Notes under the pieces: generated by a model | The model's database searches: none | What the model was told of the DNA's origin: nothing | The model's input: only the letters and a program-made list of their open reading frames with translations | Made by a program: the position numbers and the translations under genes | Assembly (NCBI GenBank): GCA_047967505.1 | Contig: CM106538.1 | From: Dipteris shenzhenensis | Lineage: Eukaryota | DNA length: 64,000 nucleotides | Reading direction: 5' to 3' (one strand) | Shown: piece by piece, positions 12,656 to 13,181 of the stretch | How positions within the stretch are numbered: the stretch's first letter is position 1 | How the letters are laid out: every line of letters begins with the position of its first letter

Positions 12656-13181
12656 CTATCGCCCAATAAACTGCATGTCTTTGGTAGTCACAGTGACCCT
12701 TTTCCTATGGATTATACAGCCAACTGGGTTGAGGTCTACTAGGTAGTAGGCCTCAGCTGCATGCTACATGGCAAGCAAGGCGTCTCTGGAAATATGCCAT
12801 GGAGCCTCCACAACTCCATGCCTATAATACCGAGACATGGGGCTATTGTTGAGGTCCTGTATGACCTCGTGTACCACCCTTGTGAAGCTTGCCATCGGGA
12901 TGAGTAGATCAATAGATTTTTGAAACTTTCTGATTTCTCAAAGTGCCACAGTCCCTGTCTTGAACCTGTATCGCCTCACTAGAGGAGGGCCTCTTTGCCC
13001 TTGATGTGAAGGGCCTCTTCCTAGATGTGGAGGGCCTCTTTGCCTTGGACCTAGAGCTGTGAGTCCTCTCCCTCGTGGGCATGGACACTGATTCTTTGCT
13101 CTTGACTTGGTCCTCTACTCCTCTGTCCTTCGCTAGTTGCTCTTCCTCGTGCTCTTCTCTGTGCTCTTCAACCTTTGACAA
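12656..13181 (-). pseudogene. Divergent histone H3 / CENH3-like pseudogene (histone fold 12979-12656; basic tail upstream in another frame)
   Basis: Manual translation of 12979-12656: VRRYRFKTGTVAL*EIRKFQKSIDLLIPMASFTRVVHEVIQDLNNSPMSRYYRHGVVEAPWHISRDALLAM*HAAEAYYLVDLNPVGCIIHRKRVTVTTKDMQFIGR*. It is colinear with H3 ([23 protein letters not shown]...ALQEAAEAYLV...CAIHAKRVT...KDIQL). The two internal stops fall where H3 has R (TGA) and Q (TAG). Confidence 0.85.

Follow-up and report, generated by a model that had tools for sequence, protein, structure and literature searches.

Introduction

Mammals have families of retro-pseudogenes derived from H3.3 and from CENP-A. In plants, excerpts of PMC7738545 describe CENH3.3-pseudo and CENH3.4-pseudo of cowpea as partial genomic duplicates holding exons 2-4 or 5-7, and excerpts of PMC8603533 document recurrent duplication of CENH3 in cereals. 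The histone domain of seed plant CENH3 is divided among five conserved exons, as stated in an excerpt of PMC12780178. Our search of the full-text literature, which covered article bodies rather than supplements (the CENH3 alignments supplementing PMC11687628, for example, may hold fern CENH3), found neither a processed plant CENH3 pseudogene nor any fern CENH3 sequence.

We describe here a broken histone sequence on the minus strand of a 64-kb window, by which we mean the whole stretch of DNA that was analysed (64,000 nucleotides), and propose that it is probably an old, decayed processed pseudogene of the host's CENH3. This copy resembles the mammalian H3.3 and CENP-A retro-pseudogenes in being intron-free, in carrying stops and a frameshift and in lying in repeat-rich DNA, and differs from them in that it has no detectable poly(A) tail or target-site duplication and that no parent gene turned up in the collections searched. 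With the cowpea pseudogenes, as far as these are described in the excerpted source, it would share the status of a non-functional CENH3-derived sequence in a plant genome; it spans the full coding sequence without introns, whereas the cowpea sequences are partial. Set against plant CENH3 itself (Arabidopsis HTR12 type, represented here by the proteins P0017 and P0128), the copy shares the H3 fold, the LLIP-x-A-x-F motif, the loss of the alpha1 Gln, a Trp before alpha2, a lengthened loop 1 (a segment of 35 aa, against 33 aa in P0017) and a short non-H3 N-terminal tail. It departs from plant CENH3 in being only 40-45% identical over the fold, in its two in-frame stops, one frameshift and absence of introns, and in having two extra residues between the Trp and alpha2, an N-P-V-G segment in alpha2 and no C-terminal tail.

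A disabled H3 fold

The histone sequence is present as a single copy within the window (tblastn), and the minus-strand frame 13114..12656 translates as ...RRYRFKTGTVAL*EIRKFQKSIDLLIPMASFTRVVHEVIQDLNNSPMSRYYRHGVVEAPWHISRDALLAM*HAAEAYYLVDLNPVGCIIHRKRVTVTTKDMQFIGR*. A CENH3-like H3 histone-fold domain, made up of alphaN, alpha1, a long loop 1, alpha2 and alpha3, occupies 12656..12985 on the minus strand, as delimited by Pfam, PDB chains, ORF boundaries and an AF2 model. An H3-type fold in this frame, which the ORF track had missed, was the core of the original prediction, and it is real and far above chance. With X placed at both stops, the fold peptide is recognised by the Pfam model PF00125 (Histone) with E 4.3e-15 and a score of 56.5 bits, where the gathering cut-off is 26.4, and it matches 171 distinct PDB sequences, of which plant and animal H3 stand at the top (E about 4e-14) and the S. 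pombe Cnp1 chain follows at E 3e-13. In the phmmer alignments to H3 chains a single large gap appears, of 13-14 residues and in loop 1. The copy and CENH3 proteins align colinearly all the way from ATG to stop, which agrees with the prediction that no intron interrupts the copy. The further claim of a complete H3 fold stands as to the fold match and fails as to full intactness, since the alpha2 region is shorter and the C-terminal tail is missing: the reading stops right after FIGR (alpha3), at a terminal TAG (12656-12658, minus strand).

Two in-frame stops interrupt the fold on the minus strand, a TGA at 12938-12940, opposite the Arg of ALREIR in the phmmer alignments to PDB H3, and a TAG at 12764-12766, which faces the Gln of LQEA. 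A single C>T change separates each of them from a sense codon, TGA from CGA at a CpG site and TAG from CAG at a CHG site. Translation of both frames places a single frameshift at about 12975-12985 (minus strand), where the tail frame (..AKRPSSS) passes into the fold frame (RRYRFKTGTVAL..), and the distance from the ATG (13082) to the stop is 427 nt, or 3n+1. Comparison of the stop codons and translation of the two frames thereby confirm the predicted inactivation by two C>T stops and one frameshift, and a sequence with these three breaks is not an intact CENH3 gene.

That the sequence is nonetheless a live gene, with TGA and TAG recoded, for example by U-to-C RNA editing, and the frameshift bypassed, is a reading to which we give hardly any credence. 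Both stops are of the type that U-to-C editing would repair (TGA from CGA, TAG from CAG), the host may be a fern, as hinted by a copia protein described below, and U-to-C RNA editing occurs in fern organelles. Against this, the setting is of nuclear type and rich in retrotransposons, and we know of no nuclear U-to-C editing of such a kind. A bypass of the frameshift would be needed as well, helix alpha2 is damaged in the model of the copy, and the CpG decay of the copy equals that of its flanks.

Affinity with CENH3

Ahead of the fold, across the frameshift, lies an N-terminal tail with its ATG at 13082, MPTRERTHSSRSKAKRPSTSRKRPFTSRAKRPSSS (12978..13082, minus strand, by translation). It is rich in K/R/S/P, is built from about three degenerate (A)KRPxxS units and holds a 21-nt direct repeat (12984-13004 and 13029-13049) with 45-nt spacing and 90% identity. 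The motifs of H3 tails are missing, there being no ARTKQTARKS-type motif in MPTRERTHSSRSKAKRPSTS..., and the HMMER alignments to H3 begin only at the RRYRFK region, downstream of the tail. The K/R/S-rich non-H3 tail of the original prediction is therefore found in the translation of the two frames, ahead of the fold and across one frameshift as proposed.

Within the fold, the phmmer alignment sets LLIP-MASF where H3 has LLIRKLPF, and the alpha1 Gln (Q68 of H3) is replaced by Thr (LLIPMASFTRVV aligned to LLIRKLPFQRLV). Loop 1 exceeds that of H3 by 14 residues, the segment running from alpha1 to where alpha2 begins measuring 35 aa against 21 aa in H3, and the RFK-x-GTVAL junction is common to the copy and the plant CENH3-like proteins P0128 and P0017. 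The features by which a CENH3 is recognised, namely an H3-type fold, a non-H3 tail, a longer loop 1 and the loss of Q68 and of LLIRKLPF, are thus all found in the copy, and judged by these sequence features its H3 fold is of CENH3 type and not canonical. In this the alignments and the tail translation uphold the CENH3 hallmarks named beforehand (LLIPxASF, loss of Q68, a longer loop 1 and a non-H3 tail), the statement that the sequence is not canonical H3, which fold and tail features alike bear out, and the estimate of some 14 extra loop 1 residues, which appear in the alignments as a 13-14-residue insertion.

Two other claims about this region need revision. The first was that loop 1 is greatly extended. 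Its length is not exceptional: among the 74 relatives that could be parsed by pattern, out of the 150 representative matches listed, the alpha1-to-alpha2 segment spans 20-39 aa, and in 6 of them it reaches at least 35 aa, so that these six equal or exceed the copy; P0017 comes close at 33 aa. Long loops recur in the protist and algal CenH3-like proteins P0015, P0020, P0021, P0022, P0044 and P0050, which resemble the copy in their segments of 35-39 aa and, in several, in LLIP or related motifs; they differ from it in being intact and from unrelated sources, and the copy is 37-46% identical to them. P0017 is a grass 'hypothetical protein' (Puccinellia chinampoensis KAM3020760.1) that resembles CENH3 with an unusually long loop 1; its segment of 33 aa compares with 22 aa in the plant CENH3-like P0128, and its AF2 model has a normal histone fold with an 18-residue loop.

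The second claim was that the CENH3-typical Trp is absent. A Trp is present in APWHISRD, two residues upstream of the F84 column of the ungapped alignment, and MAFFT places it in the same column as the CENH3 Trp; the verdict of absence depends on the alignment, because MAFFT aligns this nearby Trp with that of CENH3.

The scores point in the same direction as the motifs. A HMMER scan of 1.84 billion representatives gave 4945 matches at E 1e-3 or better, whose topmost rows are multi-copy H3 fusions, above the single-domain matches. The best single-stretch matches are two long-loop proteins, P0015 (75.8 bits) and P0017 (75.0 bits), which we call CenH3-like by their features, their source records giving no such name. 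Single canonical-type H3s score below them (P0028, 67.1 bits; P0150, 58.6 bits).

All of these relatives are distant. The best identities over the fold among representatives are about 45-51%, and the protein, metagenome and viral collections searched yielded no relative above about 51% identity. A word-indexed search of 5.8 billion proteins with the read-through peptide returned 23 candidates, none of them significant. The same kind of search with a 5-sequence alignment returned 8000 and did not help to locate a fern CENH3; among the matches listed, most are proteins of 270-400 aa, which by their length, and in view of the multi-stretch H3 rows of the HMMER scan, we take to be tandem-H3 fusions. 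Of 596 pattern matches on metagenome contigs, 275 code for relatives of H3, in our view ordinary H3 genes; the 80 that were retained reach at most 44% identity. Viral contigs gave two loci at 39-40% identity, and the H3s of giant-virus contigs reach E about 1e-19.

A tree of 151 fold domains has good support for 3 of its 148 inner branches. It joins the copy to another long branch, with an end branch of 1.28 against a median of 0.5, and groups it apart from two plant CENH3-like rows, a placement that is to be read as a long-branch artefact in so poorly supported a tree.

It is at this point that an origin outside CENH3 has to be weighed. The source could be a different H3 variant, copied and since decayed, a piece of a host gene moved by a transposon, or a viral histone. 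One may cite for it the similar raw bit scores against solved canonical H3 and S. pombe Cnp1 (56.1 and 53.2), the separation of the copy from the two plant CENH3-like rows in the tree, and the giant-virus contig H3s. These points are offset by the LLIP motif, the lost alpha1 Gln, the long loop 1, the non-H3 tail and the RFK-x-GTVAL junction, which are hallmarks of CenH3, and by the known failure of trees to resolve CenH3s, evident here in the few well-supported branches. No viral or transposase ORF was found in the flanks, nor is the copy enclosed by a pair of LTRs or TIRs. The histone mimic of the original prediction finds no backing, the viral H3s being no closer to the copy than cellular H3s, and we reject a viral origin on their identity of only 39-40%. 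Taken as a whole, an origin outside CENH3 appears improbable to us.

Decay and possible remodelling of the fold

The original prediction held that structural residues are kept. Our comparison contradicts this: of 43 columns with a conservation of at least 80%, 14 are altered in the copy. The proteins compared with it, 50 in number, show a median of 3 such changes and at most 13, a contrast that is somewhat inflated because the set was assembled by similarity to the query and contains many conservative H3s. Counted from alpha2 to the conserved His, the copy has one residue fewer than H3, and it reads N-P-V-G at the place where relatives have F-E-D-x-N-L; apart from the query, a Pro in this segment occurs in 1 of 115 representatives. 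The AF2 model of the copy, computed from a 51-sequence alignment, confines alpha2 to residues 67-85 and is non-helical after that, over N-P-V-G, at pLDDT 62-73. Unlike it, P0017, run as a control on the same set of 51 sequences, has an unbroken alpha2 of 28 residues (103-130) with a block pLDDT of 95-98. Among the Foldseek matches listed for the model of the copy, all are H3 or CENP-A chains of nucleosomes or a histone octamer, with TM scores of 0.39-0.49 and E about 1e-3; both the AF2 and the Foldseek results are those of a monomer model of an obligate dimer partner. A compensated frameshift pair across N-P-V-G was also considered, and the alternative frames, inspected by eye, were judged to be chance.

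The disabling mutations and the signs of relaxed constraint that mark a processed pseudogene are accordingly present, in the stops, the frameshift, the changes at conserved sites, the state of alpha2 and the CpG content. Simple decay does not account for everything. Columns conserved at 70% or more hold 24 deviations, of which 14 can be explained by a single-nucleotide change and ten need two or more; C>T or G>A could account for six of the 14, among them both stops and two Arg>His changes. As ten deviations call for at least two changes, much of the divergence is older than or goes beyond simple decay, or is lineage-specific, and the excess could reflect an independent evolutionary history of the copy.

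Such a history is the substance of an alternative in which an intronless CENH3 paralogue, a retrogene whose loop 1 and CATD had been remodelled, once worked as a second centromeric histone and survives at this locus only as a dead remnant. In its favour, every length difference within the fold is a multiple of three, loop 1 being 14 aa longer and alpha2 on balance 1 aa shorter, there is just one frameshift, and ten deviations need at least two nucleotide changes. CENH3 duplication is, moreover, recurrent in plants, for example in cereals and cowpea, going by the excerpts of PMC8603533 and PMC7738545. On the other side, the in-frame length differences may be the parent's own, no intact relative is present in the collections searched, alpha2 contains a helix-breaking Pro and Gly, and the copy has the largest count of conserved-site changes in the comparison. 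We regard a dead paralogue as an unlikely account of the locus.

A more specific form of the same thought, to which we give slightly less weight again, is that of a fossil of a lineage-specific second CENH3 of a fern-like plant, intronless, whose loop 1 and alpha2, the parts that target the centromere, were remodelled under selection (the 14 added residues and the shifted Trp) before the gene died. Were this doubtful reading true, intact relatives may still serve related species, for instance as a germline or meiotic centromeric histone.

A model for the origin of the copy

The reading that in our judgement probably holds is that of an old, decayed processed pseudogene of the host's CENH3. It is favoured because the copy is intron-free, full-length and colinear, whereas the CENH3 domain of seed plants is split by introns. 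The argument assumes that fern CENH3 genes carry introns and share the exon structure of seed plants. According to this model, a host CENH3 mRNA would have been reverse-transcribed and then inserted into repeat-rich DNA, the copied unit comprising ~141 codons of coding sequence preceded by a ~120-nt leader and followed by a short 3' end. After insertion the copy would have been methylated and would have begun to decay. Deamination of C to T may have produced both stops (CGA>TGA, CAG>TAG) as well as the Arg>His changes, one indel may have shifted the frame between tail and fold, and further changes may have damaged the C-terminal part of helix alpha2. In the simplest view, both the length of loop 1 and the KRPxxS repeats of the tail would be inherited from the host lineage's own CENH3.

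The base composition of the locus agrees with this sequence of events. The copy lies in a GC-rich island (12620..13200, minus strand, from the composition profile) with a GC of 0.44-0.55 between flanks of 0.23-0.35, which fits an inserted coding unit with a leader of ~120 nt. Such a leader can be recognised upstream of the ATG at 13083..13205 (minus strand) as a purine-rich stretch that is open in the tail frame without a Met (ORF 12909..13205) and has a GC of 0.47-0.54, against 0.32-0.35 farther upstream; it has no match in Pfam and probably represents the 5'UTR of what was copied. The copy has a GC of 0.50 and a CpG o/e of 0.26, and its flanks have a GC of 0.335-0.39 and a CpG o/e of 0.30. 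A low CpG content despite 50% GC fits long-term methylation and deamination.

Downstream of the fold, an AT-rich stretch with AATAAA motifs (12350..12655, minus strand) is A-rich on the gene strand at 12350-12500 and has an AT skew of -0.27 to -0.36 on the plus strand. It may be a decayed 3'UTR with the remnant of a poly(A) tract, in which no clean tail can be seen: there is no T run of at least 6 on the plus strand in 12148-12655, and the A-richness is only diffuse. The flanking direct repeats are only 9 nt long, about what chance would give. We rejected the 9-nt repeat at 12590 and 13216 as a target-site duplication because its length is expected by chance and no A-run adjoins it. The two marks of a processed pseudogene that would be looked for at the insertion itself, a 3' poly(A) tract and a target-site duplication, are consequently missing from the locus, and erosion may explain their loss.

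If a processed pseudogene is the right reading, the copy keeps the degraded outline of a plant-lineage CENH3 that is unmatched above about 51% identity in the collections searched, an outline preserved in the short tail of KRPxxS repeats and in a loop 1 ~14 residues longer than that of H3. Should the live CENH3 of the host share these features of tail and loop, the known range of loop 1 lengths in land-plant CENH3 would be wider; should it be without them, the copy would mark a lost CENH3 paralogue. As it stands, the locus is another decayed histone-variant pseudogene that says little about centromere biology.

Repeats and retrotransposon remnants around the copy

The surroundings of the copy are gene-poor and repeat-rich, with MITE-like inverted repeats, tandem repeats, copia remnants and no Pfam-recognised gene; Rfam gave no match across the window. 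Downstream of the histone copy, at a distance of 0.8-1.7 kb, sit two nested sets of inverted repeats (10943-11284 and 11364-11834) of MITE-type look, with arms of 56-71 nt that are 84-93% complementary. Just upstream of it is a direct-repeat pair (13653-13970 and 14090-14442, about 440 bp apart, 73-82% identity), followed by a tandem repeat with a 53-bp period (15147-15574) and an 82-bp tandem pair (15606-15769). About 5 kb from the copy, a satellite-like tandem array (18028-22052) comprises five to six units of about 710-800 bp and contains strong internal inverted repeats with arms of up to 375 nt, 87% complementary.

A Ty1/copia remnant lies farther off on the minus strand (38533-42022) in three broken ORFs, which encode gag, protease and pre-integrase; the integrase SH3 and RT; and the end of RT with RNase H. 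A protein of the fern Adiantum nelumboides is the closest named relative of the copia ORF, sharing 77% identity across 55% of the query length; identities drop to 51-55% in conifers and Ginkgo and do not exceed about 50% in flowering plants. Going by this one transposon protein, the host is probably a fern or some other vascular plant that does not flower. A separate copia-type RT fragment is found on the plus strand at 53277-53741 (RVT_2, E 3e-35).
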